A stretch of 64,000 nt of DNA from NCBI GenBank assembly GCA_903828645.1, contig CAIKNA010000071.1:1286-65285 (forward strand). The letters run 5' to 3'. Of this stretch, positions 392 to 43,084 are shown piece by piece. A program made the translations under genes and the position numbers. The stretch's first letter is position 1; every line of letters starts with the position of its first letter. Below the pieces are notes generated by a model. The model saw only the letters and a program-made list of their open reading frames with translations, searched no databases and was not told the origin of the DNA. Origin of the DNA: an uncultured Bacteroidales bacterium. Lineage in GTDB: Bacteria > Bacteroidota > Bacteroidia > Bacteroidales > FEN-979.

Positions 392-527
392 AAAAATGCA
401 AAATGCAAAATGCAAAATGCAAAGTGCAAAATAAAAATGCAAAATGCAAAATGCAAAATGGTAAATGATAAATCTCCGAAATCGTAAATCGTAAATCGTA
501 AATCGTAAATCGTAAATCGTAAATTTC
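392..527. repeat. tandem heptad array: (AAAATGC)n with two phase slips, then (AAATCGT)x6
   Basis: The T of TGC/TCG recurs at 397, 404, 411, 418, 425, then 438...466, then 482, 489, 496, 503, 510, 517. The array fills almost the whole pyrK-stop (529) to pyrD-start (375) spacer. Confidence 0.95.
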
Positions 528-6884: not shown

Positions 6885-8039
6885 ATGCAAAAACGCGTGA
6901 CCCATCTGACCCGGGCATTTCTACCTCCCACTACATCTTTTATCAGCAACCAGATTATTCATCATGAAAGATATTGGCCTTCAGTGGTATATACGGATAA
7001 AATTGAAAGTGATCTCTATCGGAAAATCGCGTCACTATATCCTGTTTACCAGGCTCCTCATGGGATAGCCGGCAACTTCCTGTGCAGCCGGTTTTTAATG
7101 TTCACCCGTTCAGATGAACGGAAACTGATGCACTGGATTGAAGAAAAAGCTCCTGATGTAATGCACATTCACTTTGGCGTTGAGGCGATCCTCTTTTCAA
7201 ATGTGGTCAGGAAATTGAACATTCCGGCACTGGTATCATTTTACGGACATGATAGCACTTCATTCCCGGCCAAATTCCATGGTTTGGGGCTGACCATGCT
7301 TAATCGCAAGGTGTTTTTTAATCCGGCGATCAGGCTGATACTTGCCATGTCCCCGGATATGCAGGCTGGCCTTGTTGCACTGGGTTGTCCTGCGGAAAAA
7401 ATCAGGGTGCATTATTTCGGTGTCAACACACTCCAGTTTTCGATGGATCGGGATTATGGTGAAAACAGTATCGTCAGATTTTTAATAATCAGTCACCTGG
7501 AAGAGAAAAAGGGTCACCACTACCTGATCGATGCATTCAATAAAGCAACAGCCCTTACAAACAGAAAAATTCAATTAAACATGGCAGGGGACGGGAGGCT
7601 GAAAGAGGAAATCACTCAACACATTGCGAAAAGTGGTGCAACCAACATCTTCCTGCAGGGCGTTGTCGGGTACGGATCACCCGAACATCTTGATCTGTTT
7701 AAAAATGCAGATGTTTTTGTACATCCCAGCATTACCTCGCAAAACGGAAATAAGGAAGGAATCCCGGGAACGATCATTGAAGCGATGTCGGCGGGACTGC
7801 CTGTCATTTCAACTTTCCATGCCGGCATTCCTTATGTGATCGCCAATGAAATCAACGGGTTGCTTGTCAACGAAAGGGATGTGGACCAACTCTCCGCTGC
7901 CATTGTACGCCTTGCAGAGAATGCCGGTTTGCGTCAGCAACTGGGAAATGCCGCAAGAATTTCTGCTCAAACCGAGCTGGACGTTCACAAAAAGCAGCAG
8001 GAACTCGAAATGATCTATGATGAACTTTCAGGCCAATAA
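6885..8039 (+). CDS. glycosyltransferase family 4 (GT-B)
   Basis: C-terminal EX7E-type motif NKEGIPGTIIEAMSAGLPVIST. Confidence 0.8.
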   Translation: MQKRVTHLTRAFLPPTTSFISNQIIHHERYWPSVVYTDKIESDLYRKIASLYPVYQAPHGIAGNFLCSRFLMFTRSDERKLMHWIEEKAPDVMHIHFGVEAILFSNVVRKLNIPALVSFYGHDSTSFPAKFHGLGLTMLNRKVFFNPAIRLILAMSPDMQAGLVALGCPAEKIRVHYFGVNTLQFSMDRDYGENSIVRFLIISHLEEKKGHHYLIDAFNKATALTNRKIQLNMAGDGRLKEEITQHIAKSGATNIFLQGVVGYGSPEHLDLFKNADVFVHPSITSQNGNKEGIPGTIIEAMSAGLPVISTFHAGIPYVIANEINGLLVNERDVDQLSAAIVRLAENAGLRQQLGNAARISAQTELDVHKKQQELEMIYDELSGQ

Positions 8040-10189: not shown

Positions 10190-10941
10190 GATCGGGTTGT
10201 CATTTCAATGGTTTTGGCAATTTTGATCGTGGAGTTGAATGCGGCGATGAACGACCACATGAACCCCGGATAACCATCAAGGAACCCACCTTTGATGAAA
10301 AAATAGATCAGGAAAGTAACCGGGAATTTGATCACGACCCACAGTTTGTGATAACGCTTCCCGTTTTGCAAGTTTTGCCGGGCGCCAAGCGTGGTATAAT
10401 TGTTCGATTTGTCAAATTGATTTTGAAGGTCGCTGTAAGAATAATGAATGATCCTGCCTTTCAGCCTGCCGGCGCGGCCTTTCAGGGTGAACTTCTCATG
10501 AACCTCGGTAGGATCAAATGCCCCGGATTTCCTGTTAAAAAGCCTGGGTTTATATTCGTTTCCAACCCCGGTATGATGCATGATCTTCCCCAGGTAAAAC
10601 AGGAAGAATGGAATTTCATACCCGCAAAATGGGATCGTTTCCTGTTGAAGCAGGGCAGCTATTTCATTTTTCAGCCCTTCTGTAACCACCTCGTCAGCAT
10701 CCAGCACCAGGATCCAGTCGTTCTTAGCTTCGTTGACCGCAAACTGTTTCTGATCTGCAAATCCCCTGAACTCCCTGCGTATGACCCGGCATCCGTGGGA
10801 TTCGCAAATCTCCGCTGTTTTGTCAGTCGAAAACGAATCAACAACAAGGATCTCGCCTGCAAGGCCCCCGACGGCTTCCAGGCACCTGCCAATGTTCCGT
10901 TCTTCCTGGTAGGTAATGATGGTTATGGTTAATCCTGTCAT
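10186..10941 (-). CDS. glycosyltransferase family 2
   Basis: LTITIITYQEERNI and VVDSFSTDKT, LDADE motifs. The ATG at the complement of 10939-10941 is preferred over the TTG track start. Confidence 0.75.
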   Translation of the reverse strand: MTGLTITIITYQEERNIGRCLEAVGGLAGEILVVDSFSTDKTAEICESHGCRVIRREFRGFADQKQFAVNEAKNDWILVLDADEVVTEGLKNEIAALLQQETIPFCGYEIPFFLFYLGKIMHHTGVGNEYKPRLFNRKSGAFDPTEVHEKFTLKGRAGRLKGRIIHYSYSDLQNQFDKSNNYTTLGARQNLQNGKRYHKLWVVIKFPVTFLIYFFIKGGFLDGYPGFMWSFIAAFNSTIKIAKTIEMTTRS

Positions 10942-11058: not shown

Positions 11059-12372
11059 ATGAATAATCAGAACAGGAGGAAGTTGTTCCATCAGAAAATC
11101 TTTTACATCCTGGTGCTGTCGATTGTCTTTTTCATCCCCCTTTTTGGAAGAATTTTACCCACACTGATTTTTTTGCTTTGCCTCAACTGGCTGGCAGAAG
11201 GATCCTGGATTAAAACGATCAGCCTGTTATTCAAAGAACGAAACCGCTCAGGGATGATTTCGTTCTCTGTTTTATATTTGCTTTATATCCTGGGATTGAG
11301 TTATTCAACCAACATGGATTACGGTCTTTTTGACCTCGAAGTGAAGTTCTCCTTGTTTCTTTTCCCGCTTATGTTTGCCACGGCTGAACCTTTTTACCTG
11401 CAGAAAGAAACATCGACTGCCATCCTGTTCTTTTTCATTGCCGGGTGTTTTACAGTCACATTGCTCCTTTACGCGCATGCATTGTATGCATTTGCTGCAT
11501 ATCACACGGAAGATGCATTTTATTACACAAAACTTTCATGGTATTTTCATCCGAGTTACCTCGCCATGTACGTCACTTTTGCGATTGCCATCCTGGCTTA
11601 CTGGCTTCTGGAAGCATATCCTGTTTTCAACCGTTATCAGTTACCCGGAATATTGTTGCTCATTGTTCATTTTTTTATTTTTATTGTCTTTCTGAATTCA
11701 AAAGCAGGATTGATCGCGCTGTTCATGGTGATATTCATTTACGCATTGTTATTTGTAATTGTAAAGCGCACCTGGATTTACGGAGCAGTGACCATCGTAG
11801 CTGCCGGTTTATTGTTCTTAGGTTGTTTAACCTTGTTTCCCAATGTTGTGGAACGTGTCAGGCAGTCGGGGAGCGATATTCACGCAATGGATTCAGCGGG
11901 GAAGGATCCCAGGAGCACCGCTGAAAGAATCGCCATATGGAAATGCTCTATGGAAATAATCAGCAAACATGTGATTTTCGGGGTGGGAACCGGTGATGTC
12001 AAAGACGCCCTGATGGAGAGTTACAAAGAGCATCAGGACGTCAAGATCCTGAGTCAGAAACTGAATGCCCATAACCAGTATTTACAGACCTTTATTTCGC
12101 TCGGTATTTTCGGTTTGATCCTCCTGCTATATATGCTCTTTTTCCCTGCCATCCGGGCATTCAGGCAAAAGGATTTCTTGTTCATGATCTTCCTGGCTAT
12201 ATTCGCCGTGAACATCATGGTGGAATCGATGCTCGAAAACCAGGCTGGCGTTATATTCTACGCATTGTTCAATGCATTGCTCTTCACATTTAACCCACCG
12301 GATCCTTCCGTAACAGCCCTTGATATCCTGGCCCGGCCGACCCGGAATTTTGTTAGGAAAATCAGTAACTAA
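11059..12372 (+). CDS. O-antigen ligase / polymerase family (Wzy_C domain) membrane protein
   Basis: Polytopic membrane protein with a periplasmic loop ending in the AHNQYLQTFISLGIFG motif typical of Wzy_C. Confidence 0.7.
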   Translation: MNNQNRRKLFHQKIFYILVLSIVFFIPLFGRILPTLIFLLCLNWLAEGSWIKTISLLFKERNRSGMISFSVLYLLYILGLSYSTNMDYGLFDLEVKFSLFLFPLMFATAEPFYLQKETSTAILFFFIAGCFTVTLLLYAHALYAFAAYHTEDAFYYTKLSWYFHPSYLAMYVTFAIAILAYWLLEAYPVFNRYQLPGILLLIVHFFIFIVFLNSKAGLIALFMVIFIYALLFVIVKRTWIYGAVTIVAAGLLFLGCLTLFPNVVERVRQSGSDIHAMDSAGKDPRSTAERIAIWKCSMEIISKHVIFGVGTGDVKDALMESYKEHQDVKILSQKLNAHNQYLQTFISLGIFGLILLLYMLFFPAIRAFRQKDFLFMIFLAIFAVNIMVESMLENQAGVIFYALFNALLFTFNPPDPSVTALDILARPTRNFVRKISN

Positions 12373-13965: not shown

Positions 13966-15318
13966 TTACAGGTTTGCGATAATCCCAGTGTAACTCTCAG
14001 GGGTGATGGCTTTTAATTCGTCTTTCACTTTTTTAGGAATTTTTAACCCGTCGATAAATTTTCCCAACGTTGCCCGGGTAATTCCTTCCCGGCCGCGGGT
14101 GAGTGTTTTCAATGCTTCATAGGGGTTGGGATAATTTTCACGGCGAAGGATGGTCTGGATTGCTTCAGAAACCACCGCCCAATTTTCATCTAGATCTTTT
14201 TTTAACCTGGATTCATTTAGGATCAGCCTGTTCATTCCTTTTAACAGCGATTTATATGCGATCAGCGAATGAGCCATCGGGACACCCATGTTCCGGATAA
14301 CGGTAGAGTCGGTGAGATCCCGCTGAAGGCGCGAGACCGGTAGTTTTGCCGACAAATGTTCGAAAATCGCATTGGCCATGCCAAGGTTTCCTTCTGAATT
14401 TTCAAAATCGATGGGGTTTACCTTGTGCGGCATGGTTGAGGAGCCGGTTTCCGTTGCTTTGACCTTTTGCTTGAAATAATCCATGGAGATATAGGTCCAG
14501 ATATCGCGGTCGAGATCGATCAGGATGGTATTGATGCGTTTCAGGTTGTCGAAAAATGCCGCAAGGTTATCGTAGTGTTCAATTTGCGTGGTGGTCTGGC
14601 AGCGCTCCAGGCCAAGGGTTCCATTGATGAATTTATTTGCGAATTTCACCCAGTCGATGCCCGGATATGCAGCATGATGCGCATTGAAATTCCCGGTAGC
14701 CCCGCCGAATTTTGCAGAAACGGGGATTGTTTCCAGCAGTGCCAGTTGCATCCCAAGCCGCTCCGCGAATACATAAAGTTCTTTGCCGACAGTTGTGGGT
14801 GAAGCAGGCTGGCCATGGGTGCGTGCAAGCATGGGTATGTGGTTCCATTCCCGCGACCGTTCCAGCAAGTCATTATAAATCGTTTCGAGCGCAGGCTCCA
14901 GGATGTCGCGCCAGGCATCGCGCATGGCCAGCGGAAAAGCAGTATTGTTGATGTCCTGCGAGGTAAGCCCGAAATGGATGAACTCCCTGAATTCACCCAG
15001 TCCCAGAACGTCGAACTGTTCTTTCAGGAAATATTCGATGGCCTTCACGTCGTGGTTGGTCTCCTTTTCTATCTCCTTCACCCTCTGTGCATCATCCGGT
15101 TCAAATTTTTCATAGATATGCCTCAGCCGGGGAAACATTTTTTTATCAAAACCCTTCAACCGGGGCAGTGGAATGCGGCATAATGCAATGAAATACTCCA
15201 CCTCGGCAAGTACGCGGTAACGGATAATTGCCCCCTCGGAGAAATAAGCAGCCAGTGGCTCGGTGATTTTACGATACCTGCCATCAACAGGGGAAATGGC
15301 ATTCAACATGGAATCCAT
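13966..15318 (-). CDS. purB: adenylosuccinate lyase
   Basis: ISPVDGRY N-terminus and the fumarate-lyase signature SSTMPHKVNP. Confidence 0.9.
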   Translation of the reverse strand: MDSMLNAISPVDGRYRKITEPLAAYFSEGAIIRYRVLAEVEYFIALCRIPLPRLKGFDKKMFPRLRHIYEKFEPDDAQRVKEIEKETNHDVKAIEYFLKEQFDVLGLGEFREFIHFGLTSQDINNTAFPLAMRDAWRDILEPALETIYNDLLERSREWNHIPMLARTHGQPASPTTVGKELYVFAERLGMQLALLETIPVSAKFGGATGNFNAHHAAYPGIDWVKFANKFINGTLGLERCQTTTQIEHYDNLAAFFDNLKRINTILIDLDRDIWTYISMDYFKQKVKATETGSSTMPHKVNPIDFENSEGNLGMANAIFEHLSAKLPVSRLQRDLTDSTVIRNMGVPMAHSLIAYKSLLKGMNRLILNESRLKKDLDENWAVVSEAIQTILRRENYPNPYEALKTLTRGREGITRATLGKFIDGLKIPKKVKDELKAITPESYTGIIANL

Positions 15319-15327
15319 AACTACTTG

Positions 15328-15376
15328 AAAATTAAAAATTAAAAATTACTTTACTTCACGTGTCACGTTTTCACTT
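15328..15376. repeat. composite heptad array (AAAATTA)x3 + CTTTACT + (TCACGTN)x2-3
   Basis: Read directly from the sequence. It fills the 52-nt spacer between the hydrolase stop (15371-15373, inside a TCAC unit) and the purB start (15318). Confidence 0.85.
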
Positions 15377-16813: not shown

Positions 16814-17020
16814 AGAAGATTTATGTATTAGGCGATTTCTGCTTTTAGGTTTAAACCTTTTTGTTGAAGTCTCAGGTAACAAACAGACAAAGTAACAAAG
16901 AAAATAGGAAAAAATGATGCTCATCCCTGTAGAAAGGCGAAAAGAAAAACTTTTCTGCCCTAAAATAATTTTGTATCATTTTTTACTTATTTTTGATAAC
17001 CGCAGGAAGGGAATAATTAC

Positions 17021-17069
17021 AAAATGCAAAATGCAAAATGCAAAATGCAAAATGCAAATTCAAAATTCA
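17021..17069. repeat. tandem heptad array (AAAATGC)x5 + (AAATTCA)x2
   Basis: Exact 7-nt register from 17021. It ends 28 nt before the ATG of the MetY-like gene (17097). Confidence 0.95.
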
Positions 17070-17096
17070 AAAGGTAGGATCAGGATGTAAAACACA

Positions 17097-18587
17097 ATGG
17101 ATATGGATGAGAGCGGAATGAATCGCTATTTTGAGGCTGCAGCACGTGCAGATCAGTGGCACAGGGAGTATAGGGAGCAGATGAAACAATGCCGGTTTGA
17201 TACCATTGCCACGCATGGCATCTATTCCATGCAGGAGGCGCTCGATTTCAACCAGGGGGCCATCATCGAACCGGTTTACATGTCAACTTCACAGGCCTTC
17301 CGCGATTCGGATGAAATGGAAGCCGCCCTGGGCTACAAGATACCTACATGGTGCTACTCGCGCATTGCCAACCCGACCATTTATTACCTGGAGGGAGTGC
17401 TTGCCTTGCTGGAAGGCTATGGGTCGGAAGTTGAAACATCCTGCATAGCAACCTCATCCGGTATGTCGGCCATTCAAAGTGCCGTTGACGCTTTCCTGGT
17501 GATTGATCCGAAAAACCCCGGCGCACCGATGAATTTTGTCGCCACCACCCAGGTTTACGGGGGAACCTACCAGCAGTTTTCCATGCGGAAAGACCTTGAA
17601 CATGGCATCGAATGGCGTAAGGTTGTTCACTCAACCGACCTTTCGGAATGGGAATCGCTGATCGATGAAAATACCCGGTTTCTTTACGGGGAGATGCCCA
17701 GCAACCCATGTTTATCCTTTTTCGATCTTGCAAGGGTTGCCGCACTGGCTCATAAATATGGCATTCCCCTCATCATCGATTCAACGGTGGCCACACCTGC
17801 GCTGCTGAGACCTATCCAACATGGTGCAGACATCGTCATCCAATCGGTTACAAAATCACTGGCGACCAGCGGGTTTGGAATTTCTGGGGCGGTAATCTCC
17901 CGCAGGAACCTCGTTTCGAAAATTGACAACCCCGAAATGAAGGCCGATTTCGCCAATTATCTCAAATTGTTGCCCAACCGTGACAACGGCCCGAATATCT
18001 CGCCCATGAATGCCGTGCTGGCGCTGAACGACATAAGGACTATCCGCATGCGCATGGACCACATGAGCAGAAGCACCATGAAAGTTGCACAATTCCTCTC
18101 ACAGCATAAAAATGTCGAAAGGGTCGAATACCTCGGATTGAGCAACCACCCGCTGCATGACCTTGCCTCTGAATATTTATACCTGGTTGATGCTGAATAT
18201 GATGAGCAGTATGGCGCACCGGTGAACCGGTACGGCCACCTGATGTCGTTCCTTGTCAGGGGAGATGCCGGGCAAACCCGAGATGTGTTTGATGCATTCA
18301 CCCGGATCTGGAGAGCAACCGACCTTGGCAGGATCAAATCCGTTGCGACCATCCCGGCCATCTCCACCCATTCGCAACAAGGGGAGGAAGGCCGCAAACT
18401 TGCAGGAATCCCCTCAAACCTGATCCGGCTTTGTATTGGTGTCGAACATCCCGACGATATTATCAAAGACCTCGACCAGGCTTTATCTGTGTTGGATGGT
18501 AAAAAACTGAAGGTGACATCACCCGAATTTTCGGCAGGAGGTTCCTCTTCGGCCAGGATGGGAATTAATCAGATGCTGAAATATTGA
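17097..18587 (+). CDS. Cys/Met-metabolism PLP-dependent enzyme, long divergent MetY/O-acetylhomoserine-sulfhydrylase-like form
   Basis: YSRIANPT, VYGGTY and DSTVATPALLRP motifs, plus the PLP-lysine region SVTKSLATSGFG. At 496 aa it is longer than typical family members. Confidence 0.7.
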   Translation: MDMDESGMNRYFEAAARADQWHREYREQMKQCRFDTIATHGIYSMQEALDFNQGAIIEPVYMSTSQAFRDSDEMEAALGYKIPTWCYSRIANPTIYYLEGVLALLEGYGSEVETSCIATSSGMSAIQSAVDAFLVIDPKNPGAPMNFVATTQVYGGTYQQFSMRKDLEHGIEWRKVVHSTDLSEWESLIDENTRFLYGEMPSNPCLSFFDLARVAALAHKYGIPLIIDSTVATPALLRPIQHGADIVIQSVTKSLATSGFGISGAVISRRNLVSKIDNPEMKADFANYLKLLPNRDNGPNISPMNAVLALNDIRTIRMRMDHMSRSTMKVAQFLSQHKNVERVEYLGLSNHPLHDLASEYLYLVDAEYDEQYGAPVNRYGHLMSFLVRGDAGQTRDVFDAFTRIWRATDLGRIKSVATIPAISTHSQQGEEGRKLAGIPSNLIRLCIGVEHPDDIIKDLDQALSVLDGKKLKVTSPEFSAGGSSSARMGINQMLKY

Positions 18588-20695: not shown

Positions 20696-20724
20696 CCCCC
20701 CCCAATCGTAAATCGTAAATCGTA
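20696..20724. repeat. C8 homopolymer followed by (AATCGTA)x3
   Basis: CCCCCCCC at 20696-20703, then exact heptads at 20704, 20711 and 20718. Located 20 nt upstream of the ATG at 20745. Confidence 0.9.
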
Positions 20725-20744
20725 AATCCAAAACCCTACTTCCC

Positions 20745-35842: not shown

Positions 35843-38278
35843 TTAGTCTCTGATACGCATTTTGTAAAATGAACGGTAAACAAAATATAGGGCAACGGCA
35901 AAAAAAGCAAGTCCGATGTAGTGGGCGACCGGCCGGAAATGCACAGACAGGGCAATTTCCATGGCCAGTAAGCCAAACAGGGTAGTAAACTTGATGATGG
36001 GATTCATGGCAACCGATGAGGTGTCTTTGAAAGGATCACCAACGGTATCGCCAACAACGGAAGCGGCATGAAGTTCTGTTCCCTTTTCTTTCATATCAAC
36101 CTCAATAACCTTTTTTGCATTGTCCCAGGCGCCACCGGCGTTGGCCATGAAAATGGCCTGATACAAGCCGAAGAAGGCAATCGAGATCAGGTAACTCACG
36201 AAAAGCGATACCGGCAAGGCATAATTCAGTTTTTCTGTGCCCGTCATCGATTCAGTCAACCCGGTAGGGGAGGACAAAAACGCAAAGGCCAGTGCAAAGG
36301 AGAAAATTGCTATGAAAATGTTTAGCATGCCCTTCTGTGCATAAACAGTGCAGATTTGAACCACCTCTTTCGATTTGGCCGTGTCGGCTTTTTTGGGAGC
36401 GTTGGGGTCGAGGTTGATATTCTTCTTAATGTAAGCAACCGCGCGGCTTGCTCCTGTGGTAACTGCCTGGATGGATGCCCCGCTGAACCAGTAAATGACA
36501 GAGCCGCCTAACAGAAATCCTAAAATGGTGTAAGGATTTAAAAGCGTAAGGATCTGTTCAGGCTCGATGCCAAGCGATTTTTTGATCACCAGGATGAGCG
36601 AAAAGATCATCGTTGTGGCACCCACAACCGCGGTGCCGATCAGAACGGGTTTTGCGGTGGCTTTGAAGGTGTTTCCGGCTCCGTCATTCGCTTCCAGGTA
36701 ATGTTTGGATTTTTCGAAATCAGGTTTGAAACCGAAATCCCGCTGTATTTCAGCGCTTATCCCCGGAATTTCCTCAATCAGCGACAGTTCGTAAATGGAT
36801 TGGGCGTTGTCGGTCACAGGTCCGTAACTGTCGACCGCGATGGTAACCGGGCCCATGCCAAGCATGCCGAAGGCCACCAGGCCGAAAGCAAAAATGGATG
36901 GATAGATCATGAAGTTGATCAACCCGAAAGTGCTTGCATAGTATGCAATGAACATGAGCAGGAAAAAGACCATGCCCTGCCAGAAAGCGCTGAAGTTACC
37001 CGCAACAAGTCCCGAAAGGATGTTGAGCGATGCCCCGCCTTCCTGGGAGGCAACTACGACCTCTTTTACATGCGTCGATTTGGGACTCGTGAAAAGCTTT
37101 GTGAATTCGGGGATCAATGCTGCTCCAAGTGTTCCGGCACTGATGATGACTGACAGGATGATCCACAGGTCGCTTGGAAGACCGTTGATCTGAATGTCTT
37201 TTATTGTCAGAAAACTGATTGCGAAAGTAACGACGATGGATAAGATCGAAGTTATCCATACCAGGGAGGTCAAAGGTTTTTCGAAATCAAGATCATCAAC
37301 CTTGTCGTATTTTGCCTTGCTGATAGCGCCATTGATCCAGAAGGATACAATGGAAGTGATGATCATGAAGATGCGCATCACGAAAATCCAGGTGAGCAGT
37401 TGAACCTGAACGGCAGGGTCTTTAACTGCAAGTACGATAAATGAAATGAGGGCCACACCTGTTACACCATAGGTTTCAAAACCGTCGGCAGTGGGGCCAA
37501 CGCTGTCGCCGGCATTGTCGCCTACACAATCGGCAATGGTTCCCGGGTTTCTCGGATCATCTTCGCCGATTTTGAAGATCACTTTCATCAGGTCCGAACC
37601 AATATCAGCGATTTTGGTGAAAATACCACCCGCAATTCTCAATGCGGAGGCGCCTAAGGATTCACCGATGGCAAACCCGATAAAACTTGCCCCTGCATAC
37701 TCTCCGGGAACAAACATCAGGATGATCAGCATCATGATGAGCTCCAGCGAGATCAGTACAACGCCGATGCTCATTCCCGCGTTTAAAGGGATGTTAAGCA
37801 GTTTGATAGGTTTCCGCTCCAGGGAGGCAAAAGCCATCCGCGCATTTGCCAGGGTGTTCATCCTGATTCCAAACCATGCTACACTGTAGGAGCCCAGGAT
37901 TCCGATTATGGTCCAACCCAGGATCATCAATACCCCACCGATTCCGAAGTTGGCATCTGAGAGCCATCCAAAATAAAATGCCACGGCAGAGCCGATAAAT
38001 ACGAAAAGAATTACTAAAAATTTCCCCTGCTGAATGAGATACGTCTTCGATGTTTCGAAAATAACCTGTGCAACATCCAGCATGGATTTATGTGCACCGA
38101 TTTTTTTAACTTTAAGAAATTGGAATAATCCAAACATAAAACCTGCGAAAGTGATCAAAAAACCCCAATAAAGGATGGACTGATCTCTAATCCCTGCAGG
38201 AATTACAAGATTCGCTTCGCCTGCCATTGTGAAAAATGGCAATAGCAAAGCCATAAGAAATGCACTGGCTCTTTTCAT
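35843..38278 (-). CDS. hppA: membrane-integral H+/Na+-translocating pyrophosphatase
   Basis: GGIFTKIADIGSDL, DCVGDNAGD and VGDTVGDPFKDT motifs in a polytopic protein. Confidence 0.9.
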   Translation of the reverse strand: MKRASAFLMALLLPFFTMAGEANLVIPAGIRDQSILYWGFLITFAGFMFGLFQFLKVKKIGAHKSMLDVAQVIFETSKTYLIQQGKFLVILFVFIGSAVAFYFGWLSDANFGIGGVLMILGWTIIGILGSYSVAWFGIRMNTLANARMAFASLERKPIKLLNIPLNAGMSIGVVLISLELIMMLIILMFVPGEYAGASFIGFAIGESLGASALRIAGGIFTKIADIGSDLMKVIFKIGEDDPRNPGTIADCVGDNAGDSVGPTADGFETYGVTGVALISFIVLAVKDPAVQVQLLTWIFVMRIFMIITSIVSFWINGAISKAKYDKVDDLDFEKPLTSLVWITSILSIVVTFAISFLTIKDIQINGLPSDLWIILSVIISAGTLGAALIPEFTKLFTSPKSTHVKEVVVASQEGGASLNILSGLVAGNFSAFWQGMVFFLLMFIAYYASTFGLINFMIYPSIFAFGLVAFGMLGMGPVTIAVDSYGPVTDNAQSIYELSLIEEIPGISAEIQRDFGFKPDFEKSKHYLEANDGAGNTFKATAKPVLIGTAVVGATTMIFSLILVIKKSLGIEPEQILTLLNPYTILGFLLGGSVIYWFSGASIQAVTTGASRAVAYIKKNINLDPNAPKKADTAKSKEVVQICTVYAQKGMLNIFIAIFSFALAFAFLSSPTGLTESMTGTEKLNYALPVSLFVSYLISIAFFGLYQAIFMANAGGAWDNAKKVIEVDMKEKGTELHAASVVGDTVGDPFKDTSSVAMNPIIKFTTLFGLLAMEIALSVHFRPVAHYIGLAFFAVALYFVYRSFYKMRIRD

Positions 38279-38308
38279 ATTTACCTATTTAATTATTTGA
38301 ACTGTCTA

Positions 38309-38316
38309 CAAAAATA
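38309..38316 (-). promoter_or_regulatory. -7 box candidate TATTTTTG upstream of hppA
   Basis: Complement of caaaaata, ~30 nt upstream of the ATG at 38278. Confidence 0.4.
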
Positions 38317-38377
38317 GAACAAATTTTATGAAAACATAAATTTTTGAACAACTTTTGTCTGTTAGGGAAATTTCCCG

Positions 38378-38385
38378 TAGGTTTG
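38378..38385 (+). promoter_or_regulatory. -7 box candidate TAGGTTTG upstream of the bifunctional nuclease gene
   Basis: Matches TAnnTTTG, 25 nt upstream of the ATG at 38411. Confidence 0.35.
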
Positions 38386-38410
38386 TATTTGGTAAAACCC
38401 GCAGGACCCG

Positions 38411-38995
38411 ATGGAAAAAATACGACTTGATATCATTGGAATGTCATACAGCCAATCCCAAAGCGGGGCGTATGCACTTATCCTCGGGGAGCGCGACGGG
38501 AACCGGCGTTTGCCGATAATCATCGGAGGATTTGAAGCACAATCCATCGCCATCGAGCTTGAAAAAATCAGGACCCCGCGACCGCTCACCCACGACTTGT
38601 TTAAAGCCTTCGCCGATGCCTACAAAATTGAAATTTCCGAAGTGGTCATCAGCAAATTCAGCGAGGGGGTTTTTTATGCCAAACTGGTATGCACCGACGG
38701 GGAGTCTGTTCAGGAGATCGATTCCCGCACCTCCGATGCCATTGCCCTTGCCTTGCGTTTTGCCTGCCCGGTCTTTACCTATGAAAGCATTATGTCTGCC
38801 GCGGGCATCCTGATGGAAGAGGAGGCTGAACTGCTTAAACAGGATGAGCCTGCCCGGGAAGAGTATCAAAAGGAGATGGTTTCCTATTCAGATACTTCGC
38901 TTACAGAACTCATGGAGATGCTGCATGCCGCCATCGAAAATGAAGAGTACGAAAAAGCTTCCAAAATCAGGGATGAATTGAACAAGCGAAAATAA
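38411..38995 (+). CDS. bifunctional nuclease family protein (DUF151/BFN) with C-terminal UVR motif
   Basis: RRLPIIIG..EAQSIA and RPLTHDL motifs, with a C-terminal EEYEKASKIRDEL UVR-like helix. Confidence 0.75.
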   Translation: MEKIRLDIIGMSYSQSQSGAYALILGERDGNRRLPIIIGGFEAQSIAIELEKIRTPRPLTHDLFKAFADAYKIEISEVVISKFSEGVFYAKLVCTDGESVQEIDSRTSDAIALALRFACPVFTYESIMSAAGILMEEEAELLKQDEPAREEYQKEMVSYSDTSLTELMEMLHAAIENEEYEKASKIRDELNKRK

Positions 38996-39037
38996 ATTTC
39001 CAGAACCTGACTTATTAACACTTAAAAGAAAATCCTG

Positions 39038-40297
39038 ATGGGAATAAAACTTCGTTTAATACTGATGAATTTTTTCCAGTTCTTTGTATGGGGAGCCTGG
39101 CTCATAACTATTGGAACCTATTGTTTTAATGCTAAAGGGTGGACAGGAGCTCAGTTTGGAGCAATCTTTTCAACACTTGCAATTGCTTCAATCTTTATGC
39201 CGGCGCTTACCGGAATTATTGCCGACAAATGGATAAATACCGAAAAACTCTATGGAACGCTGCACATTTTATATGGATGCGTGTTGTTCTTTGTACCACA
39301 AGTCAATGACCCGGATACCCTGTACTATGTGATATTATTGGCAATGATTTTTTATATGCCAACCATATCGCTTTCTAACTCCATTTCCTATTCAATATTA
39401 AAAAACAATAATTTTGAAGTTGTGAAGGCATACCCCCCAATTCGGGTTTGGGGAACCATCGGCTTCATTATCGCCATGTGGTGTACCAATTTATCCGGCA
39501 GTAAGGCTAATGCCAATCAGTTCATTATTGGAGCAGTTGCAGCTATTGTTTTGGGGATCTATTCATTTACTTTACCAAAATGTCTCCCCCAGAAATCAAT
39601 ATCTAAAGATGCTTCCATTATTGAACAATTGGGGTTAAATGCTTTTAAACTTTTTTTGAATTACAAAATGGCGTTATTCTTTATTTTCGCCATGTTCCTG
39701 GGTGCTGCATTGCAGCTAACCAATATGTATGGCGATTCTTTCCTTGATGATTTCAGGAATGTTCCGGAATACGCCGAATCATTTGTTGTAAAATATTCTA
39801 CGATTATAATGTCGATTTCCCAGATGTCCGAGACCCTTTTTATTCTCACCATACCTTTTTTCCTGCGGCGCTTTGGAATTAAGAAAGTTATGCTTTTCAG
39901 TATGATCGCCTGGGTGCTTCGGTTTGGATTATTCTCTTTTGGAAATCCTGCCGGCGGTTTATGGATGATAATTTTGTCTTGTATTGTTTATGGTATGGCT
40001 TTCGATTTTTTCAACATCTCTGGTTCCTTATTTGTTGAAAGCACTACCGATTCTAAAATAAGATCGAGTGCACAAGGTCTTTTTATGATGATGACCAATG
40101 GTTTTGGCGCATACTCAGGCAGTAAAATAAGCGGATTCATTATTGATAAATTTTATACACACGCTCAGGGTAAAGACTGGCATGGAATCTGGCTTGCTTT
40201 TGCAATCTATGCCTTGATTGTGGCAGTTGCGTTTGCCATCCTCTTTAAACATAAACACGACCCCAAAGACTTTTCTTCTTCAGCCATTCAGCATTAA
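39038..40297 (+). CDS. nucleoside:H+ symporter family MFS permease (NupG/XapB-like)
   Basis: A 12-TM MFS protein whose N-terminus LRLILMNFFQFFVWGAWLITIG is typical of the NupG family. Confidence 0.75.
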   Translation: MGIKLRLILMNFFQFFVWGAWLITIGTYCFNAKGWTGAQFGAIFSTLAIASIFMPALTGIIADKWINTEKLYGTLHILYGCVLFFVPQVNDPDTLYYVILLAMIFYMPTISLSNSISYSILKNNNFEVVKAYPPIRVWGTIGFIIAMWCTNLSGSKANANQFIIGAVAAIVLGIYSFTLPKCLPQKSISKDASIIEQLGLNAFKLFLNYKMALFFIFAMFLGAALQLTNMYGDSFLDDFRNVPEYAESFVVKYSTIIMSISQMSETLFILTIPFFLRRFGIKKVMLFSMIAWVLRFGLFSFGNPAGGLWMIILSCIVYGMAFDFFNISGSLFVESTTDSKIRSSAQGLFMMMTNGFGAYSGSKISGFIIDKFYTHAQGKDWHGIWLAFAIYALIVAVAFAILFKHKHDPKDFSSSAIQH

Positions 40298-40304
40298 ATT
40301 AATA

Positions 40305-40444
40305 TTTGCACTTTGACTGTGCACTTTGATTTTGCACTTTGACTTTGCACTTTGATTTTGCACTTTGACTTTGCACTTTGACTTTGCACTTTGACTTTGC
40401 ACTTTGACTTTGCATTTTGACTTTGCATTTTGCCCTTTGCATTT
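40305..40444. repeat. compound tandem array: nine 13-nt units (TTTGCAC+TTTGAY), then three heptads (TTTGCAT/TTTGCCC/TTTGCAT)
   Basis: GCAC/GCAT recurs at 40308, 40321, 40334, 40347, 40360, 40373, 40386, 40399, 40412 and 40425 (13-nt period), then at 40432 and 40439 (7-nt period). It fills the permease-thyA spacer. Confidence 0.95.
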
Positions 40445-40449
40445 AACAA

Positions 40450-41244
40450 ATGAAACAGTATCTTGATCTTCTTGATTTTGTCCTGAAAAACGGCATCCAA
40501 AAACCCGACCGCACCGGCACCGGCACGATCAGCGTTTTCGGATACCAGATGCGGTTCGACCTGCGAGAGAGTTTTCCGCTCCTAACCACCAAAAAATTGC
40601 ACCTCAGGTCGATCATCCATGAACTGCTTTGGTTTTTGCAGGGTTCAACCAACACCAGGTACCTTACGGATAACAAGGTAACCATCTGGAACGAATGGGC
40701 CGACAAGCAGGGAAACCTCGGCCCGGTATACGGGTATCAATGGCGCTCGTGGCCAAAGACCGATGGCTCGCATGTTGACCAGATCCGTCAGGTTGCTGAT
40801 TCAATCCTTCAGAATCCTGATTCACGCCGTCACATCGTTAGCGCATGGAATGTTGGGGACCTGGACAAAATGGCTCTGCCACCCTGTCACTTGCTTTTCC
40901 AGTTTTATGTGGCCAACGGCGAACTCTCCTGCCAGATGTACCAGCGCAGCTGCGACATCTTTCTGGGTGTGCCGTTCAACATCGCCTCTTATGCCCTGCT
41001 CACGTTGATGATGGCCCATGCAACTGGGCTCAAACCCGGGGAGTTCATCCATACACTGGGGGATGCGCACATTTACCTGAACCACCTCGACCAGGTACAA
41101 CTCCAGTTGTCACGCGAGCCATTGCCCCCACCGCAAATGAACCTGAACCCGGAGGTGAAAAACATTGACGACTTCCGCTTTGAGGATTTTCAACTGGTCA
41201 ACTACCAGTCGCACCCCCACATCAAGGGTGACATTGCAATCTGA
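40450..41244 (+). CDS. thyA: thymidylate synthase
   Basis: MKQYLDLL...DRTGTGT...catalytic LPPCH...; full-length 264 aa. Confidence 0.95.
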
Positions 41245-41256
41245 AAAATATTGTAA

Positions 41257-41298
41257 TTTTGCCATTTTACTTTTGCATTTTCCATTTTGCACTTTCCT
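41257..41298. repeat. T-tract short-period repeat (TTTTGCC ATTTTAC TTTTGCA TTTTCCA TTTTGCA CTTTCCT)
   Basis: T-runs start at 41257, 41265, 41271, 41278, 41285 and 41293 (spacing 6-8 nt). The array abuts the folA ATG at 41300. Confidence 0.8.
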
Positions 41299-41299
41299 T

Positions 41300-41788
41300 A
41301 TGATATCAATCATTGTCGCAATAGCAGAAAACCGGGCCATCGGGAAAAACAACGATCTCCTCTGGCATATCCCGGCCGATCTGAAGCGTTTTAAAAGCAT
41401 CACGAACGGTCACCCGGTCATCATGGGTAAAAGAACCTGGGAATCACTTCCACGGAGGCCACTGCCAAACCGCAGGAACATTGTGATTACCGACATTCCC
41501 GGCGAACAGATCGAGGGTTGTGAGATGGCATATTCAATCTCCGGTGCGATTGCCATGTGCAGCCCGGATGAGGAAAATTTTATCATCGGGGGCGCTTCGG
41601 TTTATAGCCAGTTTTTACCTCATACCGACCGGCTCTACCTCACGCTGGTCCATAAATCGTTCGATGCGGATGTCTTCTTTCCGGAAATAGATTTTTCAAA
41701 ATGGAAACTGCTTTCAAAGGAGGAGTTCCTGCCCTGTGAAGTCAACGATTTTGCTTATTCAAACGAGACCTACGGCAGAATTATGTGA
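41300..41788 (+). CDS. folA: dihydrofolate reductase
   Basis: MISIIVAIAENRAIGKNNDLLWHIPADLKRFK. The track ORF (41165) overlaps thyA, so it was trimmed to the ATG at 41300. Confidence 0.9.
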   Translation: MISIIVAIAENRAIGKNNDLLWHIPADLKRFKSITNGHPVIMGKRTWESLPRRPLPNRRNIVITDIPGEQIEGCEMAYSISGAIAMCSPDEENFIIGGASVYSQFLPHTDRLYLTLVHKSFDADVFFPEIDFSKWKLLSKEEFLPCEVNDFAYSNETYGRIM

Positions 41789-43084
41789 TCAGGTTTTTCT
41801 TTTTTGCTTTTTAGCCGCCGGGAATAGTATGTTATTTAGGATCAGCCGGTATCCCGGTGAATTCGGATGAAGTTTGAGATCGGTGGGAGGATCCCCGACA
41901 AGGTGCTGGTAATCTTCAGGATCATGCCCCCCAAGGAATGTCCATGTTCCTTTACCAAAGTCACCATGAATGTACCTCGCTTCGTCCAGCGACTTCGTTT
42001 CGCCCAGTACGAGCACGTTAGACTTGATGTATTTTTTATTGAATGCCGTGGTTTGTCCCATGAATCCATGGATCAGGGTTTCGTGATCCTGGCAGAGCAT
42101 GCAGGGTACCGGGTCCCATTTGGCGGAAAAATCAAACAAGGTAAAAAAATCGTTCTCTCTTTTGATGTTTTTAGGCCGGGTCTCCGTTACATCGATCGAT
42201 GAAATTTCATACTGGTAGGGGTTTGTCACCAGGGTGAAATTTTCGAAGGCAAAACAATTGGCGAAATTTATTTTTGACTGTGCATTGGGATCGGGCGGAT
42301 CTCCGTCGAACATCACGTCGCAAATGTCAACGCCATCGGCTGCCAGCGCAACATCATAACTGTCGGGGGCCGAACACATGGCGAAAAGATACCCTCCGCC
42401 TGCGACAAAGTCGCGGATCTTTTTAACGACCGCAAGCTTCATCTGCGAAACTTTTGAGAAGCCTAACTTTTTCGCCATCTCCTCTTGGATATTCACATCC
42501 TCCTGGTACCAGGGAAACCCCTTATAAGCCCCCCAGAATTTGCCATACTGCCCGGTAAAATCCTCGTGATGAAGATGGAGCCAGTCGTACATCGGCAACA
42601 ACCCGGCCATGATCTCCTCGTCATAGAGGATGTCATATGGAATTTCCGCATAGGTCAGAACCAGTGTCACCGCATCGTCCCATGGCAGTTTGTTTTTTGG
42701 GGAATATACGGCGACCCTGGGAGGTTTGTGAAGTTTGATGTTCTCCATGTTCACCTGCGCATCGGAAATTTCCTCGAGAATGGCCGCAGCCTGGGCGTCG
42801 GCTATGGTCTGGCAGGTAACTCCCCGGATGTTGCACTCCTCTTCAAATGCCTTGACATACTGGAACATGAAACTCCCGCCGCGGTAGTTCAGCAGCCAGC
42901 TCACCTCCACATCTTTTTTCAATACCATGTAGGCAATTCCGTAAGCTTTCAGATGGTTCTTCTGGGCATCATCCATGGGCACGAGGAGGAAAGCCCCGAA
43001 AGAGGTCCGGACAAGGCAAAGCATCAGGAAAATAATCAGAAAACCTGCAGGATTAAAACGGTGCATCATGGTGCTCATCATCAT
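41789..43084 (-). CDS. conserved hypothetical protein with N-terminal signal/anchor
   Basis: 431-aa ORF with a hydrophobic N-terminus. I could not recognise a catalytic motif with confidence. The 5' end overlaps the dnaB stop by 14-32 nt, depending on which Met is used. Confidence 0.5.
   Translation of the reverse strand: MMMSTMMHRFNPAGFLIIFLMLCLVRTSFGAFLLVPMDDAQKNHLKAYGIAYMVLKKDVEVSWLLNYRGGSFMFQYVKAFEEECNIRGVTCQTIADAQAAAILEEISDAQVNMENIKLHKPPRVAVYSPKNKLPWDDAVTLVLTYAEIPYDILYDEEIMAGLLPMYDWLHLHHEDFTGQYGKFWGAYKGFPWYQEDVNIQEEMAKKLGFSKVSQMKLAVVKKIRDFVAGGGYLFAMCSAPDSYDVALAADGVDICDVMFDGDPPDPNAQSKINFANCFAFENFTLVTNPYQYEISSIDVTETRPKNIKRENDFFTLFDFSAKWDPVPCMLCQDHETLIHGFMGQTTAFNKKYIKSNVLVLGETKSLDEARYIHGDFGKGTWTFLGGHDPEDYQHLVGDPPTDLKLHPNSPGYRLILNNILFPAAKKQKRKT

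Follow-up and report, generated by a model that had tools for sequence, protein, structure and literature searches.

A young heptad-derived tandem repeat in front of thyA in an uncultured Bacteroidales bacterium

Tandem repeats built of units of about seven nucleotides have been known from the spaces between bacterial genes since the short tandemly repeated repetitive (STRR) sequences of cyanobacteria, and such heptamers are over-represented in surveys of simple sequence repeats (SSRs); their origin and function are still unexplained. In Calothrix, Nostoc and Anabaena a few STRR heptamer families are dispersed over many intergenic sites in each genome, and their variability suffices for strain fingerprinting. 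The intergenic heptamer SSRs surveyed by Mrazek in 2007, GGGAATC of Xanthomonas among them, are described by Rehm et al. in 2015 (PMC4692102) as head-to-tail units of about 7 nt that occur at many loci, vary widely among close relatives and have no established function, polymerase slippage having been proposed for them. In 2015 MacGregor described TAACTGA direct repeats in Beggiatoaceae, Cyanobacteria and five Bacteroidetes (PMC4679880); these lie a few nucleotides before start codons, where they replace a Shine-Dalgarno (SD) sequence, also within operons, and they share their spacers with other heptamers, are absent from the closest syntenic relatives and coincide with breaks in assemblies. 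The Haemophilus influenzae genes hmw1A and hmw2A carry a pyrimidine-rich heptad, (ATCTTTC)n, in their 5' untranslated region (UTR), in about ten or more copies and in variable number (PMC12721329). Here we describe an array of related design in 64,000 nt of DNA from an uncultured Bacteroidales bacterium (GTDB FEN-979; assembly GCA_903828645.1, contig CAIKNA010000071.1, positions 1,286 to 65,285 of the forward strand), a stretch that we call the window and whose own numbering is used below. The array occupies most of the spacer between a nucleoside permease gene and thyA; it is a young, lineage-specific, heptad-derived tandem repeat, and it belongs to a genome-wide population of like arrays. 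The closest named relatives are Prolixibacteraceae/Bacteroidales metagenome-assembled genomes (MAGs) from anoxic fresh water, with 83% ThyA identity as the best among the GTDB representatives returned, and the host is an uncultured Prolixibacteraceae-like member of the Bacteroidota from anoxic lake water.

The array before thyA and its turnover

Tandem Repeats Finder (TRF) reports the array at 40305-40441 with a period of 13, 10.5 copies, 92% matches and no indels; its score of 223 is the highest of any array in the window. When it is parsed in register, 21 TTTG anchors are found (one of them reads TGTG), with nine repeats of the spacing 7,6 followed by 7,7. This confirms the compound design given in the preliminary description of this DNA, at 40305-40442 on the plus strand: nine 13-nt units of the form TTTGCAC/T + TTTGAC/T (40305-40421) are followed by three plain heptads, TTTGCAT TTTGCCC TTTGCAT (40422-40442). 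Unit 2 carries the variant TGTG and, like unit 4, GAT; unit 9 has GCAT. Each can be read as two heptads of which the second is short by one base (TTTGCAC + TTTG-AC), hence 7+6, and the compound array grades toward its 3' end into pure heptads, with the same unit as the arrays of plain heptads at 393-460 and 17020-17072. For the motif TTTGCAYTTTG the window has 21 occurrences, where shuffled sequence predicts 0.27. The units abut head to tail and have no unique spacers between them, which rules out a CRISPR (clustered regularly interspaced short palindromic repeats) array.

About 137 bases of the 152-nt permease|thyA spacer are array, all of it non-coding. Seven bases (ATTAATA, 40298-40304) separate the permease stop codon from unit 1, and another seven (TTAACAA, 40443-40449), which hold no SD core, separate the last heptad from the thyA ATG at 40450. 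The sense strand of the array contains no ATG and a single GTG. Stop codons number 3, 3 and 5 in the three forward frames, so the statement that the array closes every frame is correct; it is also trivial, because TGA recurs with a period not divisible by three. On the bottom strand the unit is free of stop codons in every phase, and for that reason an antisense open reading frame (ORF) of 68 aa with a TTG start (40294-40500, minus strand) stays open across the whole array and overlaps the start of thyA; it is almost certainly not a gene. The genes on either side were identified with Pfam, all on the plus strand: a nucleoside:H+ symporter of the Nuc_H_symport permease family at 39038-40297 (PF03825, E=6.8e-127), thyA, for thymidylate synthase, at 40450-41244 (PF00303, E=6.3e-127), and beyond it folA, for dihydrofolate reductase (DHFR), at 41300-41788 (PF00186, E=1.6e-57).

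An identical 152-nt spacer is present in six metagenome contigs from different samples and assemblers, with thyA 99.6-99.9% identical, and an assembly artefact is thereby ruled out, since samples and pipelines both differ. One strain contig, L006, has three units fewer (7.5 instead of 10.5), possibly through collapse in a short-read assembly, as all of these strain contigs are short-read assemblies; six of the seven full-length strain copies are thus identical, and two further strain contigs terminate inside the array. Length is therefore mostly invariant among strains, which the preliminary description had reckoned as evidence against its own reading, with the caveat that these strains are at least 99.6% identical in thyA.

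Beyond the strain level the picture is one of turnover. The gene order H+-pyrophosphatase (H+-PPase) / BFN-permease-thyA-folA / DnaB is kept in many metagenome relatives; the permease|thyA and thyA|folA spacers are not. The permease|thyA spacer is 24 nt long and arrayless in L119/L120, 24 nt in P0014, 40 nt in P0007, 46 nt in L121 (with one tandem duplication of 14 nt), 68 nt in P0016, 96 nt in L090, 152 nt in the window and 237 nt in L091, the three P-numbered relatives being represented by length only. L090 carries (TTGTCAC)x9.3 and a lone TTTGCAC remnant before the ATG, L091 carries (AGACGCAA)x6.4 within a long inverted repeat flanked by GAGATTT heptads, and L011, a more distant Prolixibacteraceae MAG (83% ThyA identity), carries (CTCTTRA)x5. 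The spacer thus tolerates lengths of 24 to 237 nt, and because the relatives differ in spacer length and have unrelated contents, the short spacer of about 24 nt is probably the ancestral state and arrays probably arose in it independently in at least four lineages. The recent expansion proposed earlier is borne out, inasmuch as the array is absent or replaced in every syntenic relative and is three units shorter in one strain contig. As a separate observation, the octad array of L091 (11258-11494) serves as an arm in an inverted repeat that is long and imperfect, CACCGCGGAGACGCAAAG...CTTTGCGGTG, followed by an A/T run, and GAGATTT heptads stand on both sides.

The thyA|folA spacer (41245-41299, plus strand) had been described as a second array in the same orientation. 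Degenerate TTTTGCA-type heptads are indeed present at 41256-41297, and they are far weaker (75-82% matches, score 40-54) than those upstream of thyA. The window, L090 (spacer of 96 nt) and L119/L120 (60 nt) all have a degenerate TTTGCA/TTTRAY array here, and from this sharing it follows that it is the older of the two. L090 has an identical 12-mer, TTTGCACCTTGA, at thyA and at folA (11330-11356 and 12220-12247), each time 3 nt upstream of the start codon, which suggests copying between adjacent spacers and makes the homogenisation suggested in the preliminary description plausible.

Related arrays in the window, the lineage and other genomes

Although the array before thyA has the top score in the window, as the preliminary description implied in calling it the largest, it is not isolated. 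Short-period arrays occupy 7-8 of the 30 spacers of at least 20 nt in the window (about a quarter), ending 2-24 nt upstream of start codons, and the genes that they adjoin are mutually unrelated, including a peptidase, Cys/Met pyridoxal-phosphate (PLP) enzymes and a HAD hydrolase (Pfam). TTTGCAY-type arrays recur at 393-460, 17020-17072 and 41256-41297, unlinked loci with a single unit family. At 393-524 (minus strand) a (TTTTGCA)x9.9 array at 393-460 and a (TACGATT)x6.6 array at 479-524 together fill the spacer 5' of a dihydroorotate-dehydrogenase-like gene (Pfam DHO_dh; ATG at about 375, minus strand). The remaining TRF arrays are (TCACGYA)x5.7 at 1871-1910 (strand not assigned), whose unit family is common to L091 as GTCACGC x8.9; (AAAATTA)x3 at 15328-15348 (strand not assigned), 9 nt 5' of a minus-strand gene start at 15318; (TTTTGCA)x7.7 at 17020-17072 on the minus strand, which reads CAAAATG on the plus strand, in a divergent spacer; and (AATCGTA)x3.6 at 20704-20728 (plus strand), 16 nt before gene 20745. 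Strain contig L092 terminates at the first unit of this last array.

The array at 17020-17072 lies 24 nt 5' of the plus-strand gene at 17097 and is identical in L092. An apparent change in the length of its spacer in that contig was traced to a different start-codon call and was set aside. In the CAAAATG orientation (16925-17096) AUG falls every 7 nt in the probable 5' leader of gene 17097, although Bacteroidetes are described as depleted of AUG around their start codons. Upstream of this array are two -7-like boxes, at 16966 and 16988.

A census of 290 kb of contigs from the lineage gave 55 arrays, of period 7 (n=31), 13 (n=6), 14 (n=6), 20 (n=4) and 21 (n=1) among others, so that period 7 and its combinations account for 48 of the 55. 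The recurrent unit families are TACGATT (7 arrays), TTTTGCA, TGTCCCG and TTGTCAC. Very long arrays were seen in L118, from the same metagenome population, with (CTGATGTG)x32 and (CGGGACA)x30 among those at 513-768, 2327-2422 and 7576-7783. Metagenome contigs L007, L009, L092 and L105 terminate inside arrays or at their first unit, and array lengths taken from short-read assemblies need caution because contigs break at arrays.

An exact-pattern scan of public metagenomes for two consecutive TTTGCAY/TTTGAY compound units returned 26 stretches, which represent at least 10 distinct loci, mostly from the same boreal-lake samples. The compound unit stands in sense orientation directly 5' of a start codon in co-directional spacers (L095/L101, L103, L113, L094/L110), immediately 5' of a TATCTTTG -7 box (L098/L102, L114), and 3' of convergent genes (L093, L104/L111). 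L106 and L096/L117 are apparently one locus, at which L106 has one 13-nt unit more (short-read assemblies). A dispersed element of about 150 nt was also seen, in which conserved flanks, GTCTTATCTTTCGATTTGATGTTTTTATTGGCATAAAATCATAGACAAAGGCCTTTGT ... TTCTGGCTTGTCCAGGTTAGG, surround 2-5 TTTGCAY/TTTGAY units; it is present at L097, L099, L108, L112, L118 and L096/L106/L117, in differing genomic contexts. The six loci that carry this element gave no Rfam match, and it could be a MITE-like (miniature inverted-repeat transposable element) carrier or a small-RNA or terminator module.

A survey of 80 diverse genome loci (L010-L089, 1.33 Mb) indicates how general such arrays are. Period 7 (n=23) and period 8 (n=11) dominate over periods 6 (n=2), 9 (n=2) and 10 (n=3); the heptad/octad excess is thus general and not a peculiarity of this lineage, and the dominance of period 7 agrees with the heptamer excess that PMC4692102 cites from Mrazek 2007. 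About 2.7% of spacers in the 80 genomes carry an array, and the lineage of the window is about 10 times richer per spacer. No preference for a spacer class was found in the 80 genomes (2.7% of co-directional, 2.4% of convergent and 2.8% of divergent spacers). Specificity for thyA or for pyrimidine genes was considered, since arrays adjoin pyrD, thyA and folA in the window and are thyA-adjacent in 9 of the 80 unrelated genomes, and was rejected: enrichment in thyA-adjacent spacers across the 80 genomes is not significant (5 of 96 against 17 of 727, p=0.17). With arrays standing next to unrelated genes in about a quarter of the window spacers as well, the earlier proposal that arrays link permease, thyA and folA, as a regulatory device, is not supported. 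In Gammaproteobacteria/Chromatiales MAGs of the survey (L037 at 10801-10907 and 17491-17617; L043 at 1795-1935) we observed heptad or octad arrays of opposite polarity that face each other, (AGTTTCG)x4 ... (TCGAAAC)x4 and (CGCAAAGG)x3.9 ... (CTTTGCGC)x3.9; such pairs would form long repeat-built hairpins just 3' of genes, thyA among them.

Explanations for the array

We think it probable, though well short of certain, that slippage generated the array as a young intergenic SSR, one of the known heptamer class, and that it is passively tolerated as a leader within a BFN-permease-thyA-folA operon. Loss of one base from one heptad of an original TTTGCAY pair would have given the 7+6 unit, and slipped-strand mispairing or unequal recombination would then have extended it in a 13-nt register within an originally short (about 24 nt) spacer. 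The sole complete match to a Bacteroidota-type promoter 5' of the gene string, TTTG-N20-TAGGTTTG at 38354-38385 (plus strand), lies 33 nt before the BFN-domain gene (38411) and is conserved in L090, L091 and L119; it is the putative operon promoter, from which the array would be co-transcribed in a polycistronic BFN-permease-thyA-folA mRNA. There the array would form a U-rich leader that is unstructured and contains neither AUG nor an SD sequence. Folding predictions are consistent with this idea. The RNA of the 191-nt region folds at -25.5 kcal/mol (z=-1.5, no better than shuffles) and its centroid is unpaired across the array, while the bottom DNA strand forms 4-bp TGCA hairpins only, so that the self-complementary TGCA cores, to which the preliminary description drew attention, come to little. 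Among the start regions of the window, those that follow an array have the weakest predicted structure (-5.1 kcal/mol against -7.8, p=0.052; -14.0 for coding 70-mers). Neither 3' ends nor known RNA elements were indicated: the one intrinsic-terminator match has a 5-bp stem, which arises from the single T-to-G variant in unit 2, and the number of matches is not above that in shuffles; the covariance models of Rfam 15 gave no match at gathering score in the whole window; and a Rho-utilisation site was ruled out on sequence, as every C in the unit follows G or A and YC dinucleotides number 0.

Bacteroidia ribosomes do not use SD sequences (PMC6847099; likewise PMC7797042 and PMC9976891), and the low count of 4-nt SD cores in the window, in 8 of 49 genes, is as expected from this. 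Initiation in Bacteroidia involves binding of the 30S subunit to an unstructured region and lateral diffusion to the start codon, with AUG depleted nearby (PMC6847099). Because initiation is SD-independent and needs an unstructured region, a non-folding array leader would be tolerated or mildly favoured at start codons, and such tolerance would explain both the build-up of arrays near start codons and their quick turnover. Unit number may slightly shift thyA translation; nothing points to a dedicated switch of thyA and folA.

Several observations weigh against this account. Many unlinked loci share the few units TTTTGCA, TACGATT, TGTCCCG, TTGTCAC and the 7+6 compound. Since local slippage leaves this recurrence unexplained, either some process that copies units or selection in favour of certain ones must be at work besides; the same puzzle attends the STRR, GGGAATC and TAACTGA repeats (PMC4679880, PMC4692102). 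The six identical strain copies agree even in their internal variants, and are steadier than a freely slipping array might be. A-rich arrays of the family that contain AUG precede genes 17097 and 20017, so avoidance of AUG is not strict. Lastly, we infer that the array is transcribed and that the genes form an operon, and any influence on translation is likewise inferred.

The recurrence of units would be easier to explain if the unit were recognised, and we considered first that (UUUGCACUUUGAC)n may be a multi-site mRNA landing pad for an OB-fold protein, a cold-shock protein (Csp) or bS1, with 6-7 nt per domain, that controls thyA translation through ribosome recruitment or the melting of structure, perhaps in a cold hypolimnion. 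The unit length fits the heptanucleotide footprint of CspB, whose preferred site is the pyrimidine-rich 5'-GTCTTTG/T-3' (PMC1904285); in another register the array reads GACTTTG x6 (one mismatch) and CACTTTG x8 (two mismatches). The 2-24 nt between arrays and start codons suit such a pad, and S1 or Csp binding was proposed by MacGregor for the TAACTGA heptads (PMC4679880). Arrays occur, however, in both orientations (of those within 50 nt of a start, about 8 are sense and 3 antisense) and also 3' of convergent genes, the unit sequence is wholly different in the same spacer of close relatives, and the window holds no csp gene; we regard this possibility as rather unlikely. A broader form of the idea makes the TTTGCAY/TTTGAY unit and the other heptad families of the lineage a dispersed, sequence-specific system of cis-elements in place of passive slippage, and this we hold to be unlikely. 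Its elements could be sites at which an OB-fold protein, or another that binds single strands, docks to set SD-less translation, with unit number as the dial; or the units could be the product of templated copying, and this would account for both the same units at unlinked spacers and the colonisation of one spacer in at least four lineages.

The array could instead be a contingency locus or rheostat like that of H. influenzae hmw, copy number tuning thyA and folA in a graded, heritable and reversible way. The short allele of L006 and the one-unit difference at another locus of the family are what such a locus would produce, contigs that break inside arrays fit length heterogeneity within samples, and the (ATCTTTC)n of the hmw 5'-UTR, with expression inverse to n, is a precedent (PMC12721329). 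That precedent depends on a complementary G-rich arm and an RNase III hairpin, whereas no complement or inverted repeat of the array was found within 38200-41900 and its RNA is predicted to be unstructured. The six identical strain copies and the possible collapse of the seventh speak against it too, and thyA and folA are housekeeping genes, not surface antigens; a rheostat is, in our judgement, quite unlikely.

At the level of DNA, the array places TTTG, the Bacteroidota -33 element, every 6-7 bp, and a run of such elements, or an array of transcription-factor sites, might make or boost a thyA promoter. The -7 boxes that directly follow compound arrays at L098/L102 and L114 fit this idea, as do two -7-like boxes in the thyA|folA spacer, TAATTTTG at 41254 and TACTTTTG at 41268. 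Hits to the -7 box TAnnTTTG are concentrated in the intergenic DNA of the window (16 of 45). There is none anywhere in 40298-40449, and so none at the 17-23 nt 3' of a TTTG that a promoter would need, and the 7 nt between the array and the ATG cannot accommodate a promoter. At the permease|thyA spacer no sigma-70 promoter exceeded shuffle expectation, and in relatives the same genes, in the same order, are expressed with a spacer of 24 nt. A role in transcription is therefore very unlikely. Delivery of the array by a small mobile or dispersed element with TTTGCAY/TTTGAY units, or its survival as a remnant of one, is suggested by the conserved element of about 150 nt, with its 2-5 internal compound units and differing flanks at at least six metagenome loci, but is highly improbable, as the window contains neither of its conserved flanks, even when 3 mismatches are allowed, and the thyA spacer has no flanks in common with the other loci of the family.

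Comparison with known systems

In a single spacer of a probable operon the locus shows, as a natural series, how arrays are born and replaced, from 24 nt without an array to at least four unrelated arrays. Should unit number affect SD-independent translation, such arrays would give a simple and evolvable means of controlling expression; otherwise they are a useful marker of a mutational process specific to the lineage. They are also a practical cause of contig breaks and fragmented assemblies in metagenomes of this lineage.

The hmw arrays resemble the present one as pyrimidine-rich heptads before a start codon, perhaps also in their variable number; there, however, the repeats pair with a G-rich arm, RNase III cuts the hairpin and the genes encode adhesins, and the window array has no such arm. 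The cyanobacterial STRR heptamers, which PMC4692102 also mentions, are alike in that a few families are spread over many intergenic sites, but belong to another phylum and have other unit sequences. With the TAACTGA repeats (PMC4679880) the array shares its position a few nucleotides before a start codon without an SD sequence and inside a probable operon, the company of other heptamers in the same spacers, its absence from the closest syntenic relatives and the breaking of assemblies; its unit is TTTGCAY/TTTGAY, and the orientation of the arrays to the downstream gene is less consistent. Compared with GGGAATC and the heptamer class of Mrazek, as cited in PMC4692102, the window array is T-rich, cannot form a G-quadruplex, has a compound 7+6 unit of 13 nt and resides in an uncultured member of the Bacteroidota. 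It has the features of that class all the same, namely head-to-tail units of about 7 nt, an intergenic position, a unit family at many loci and rapid turnover. The array before thyA, compound unit included, thus belongs to the intergenic heptamer repeats, a class that is known and functionally unexplained.

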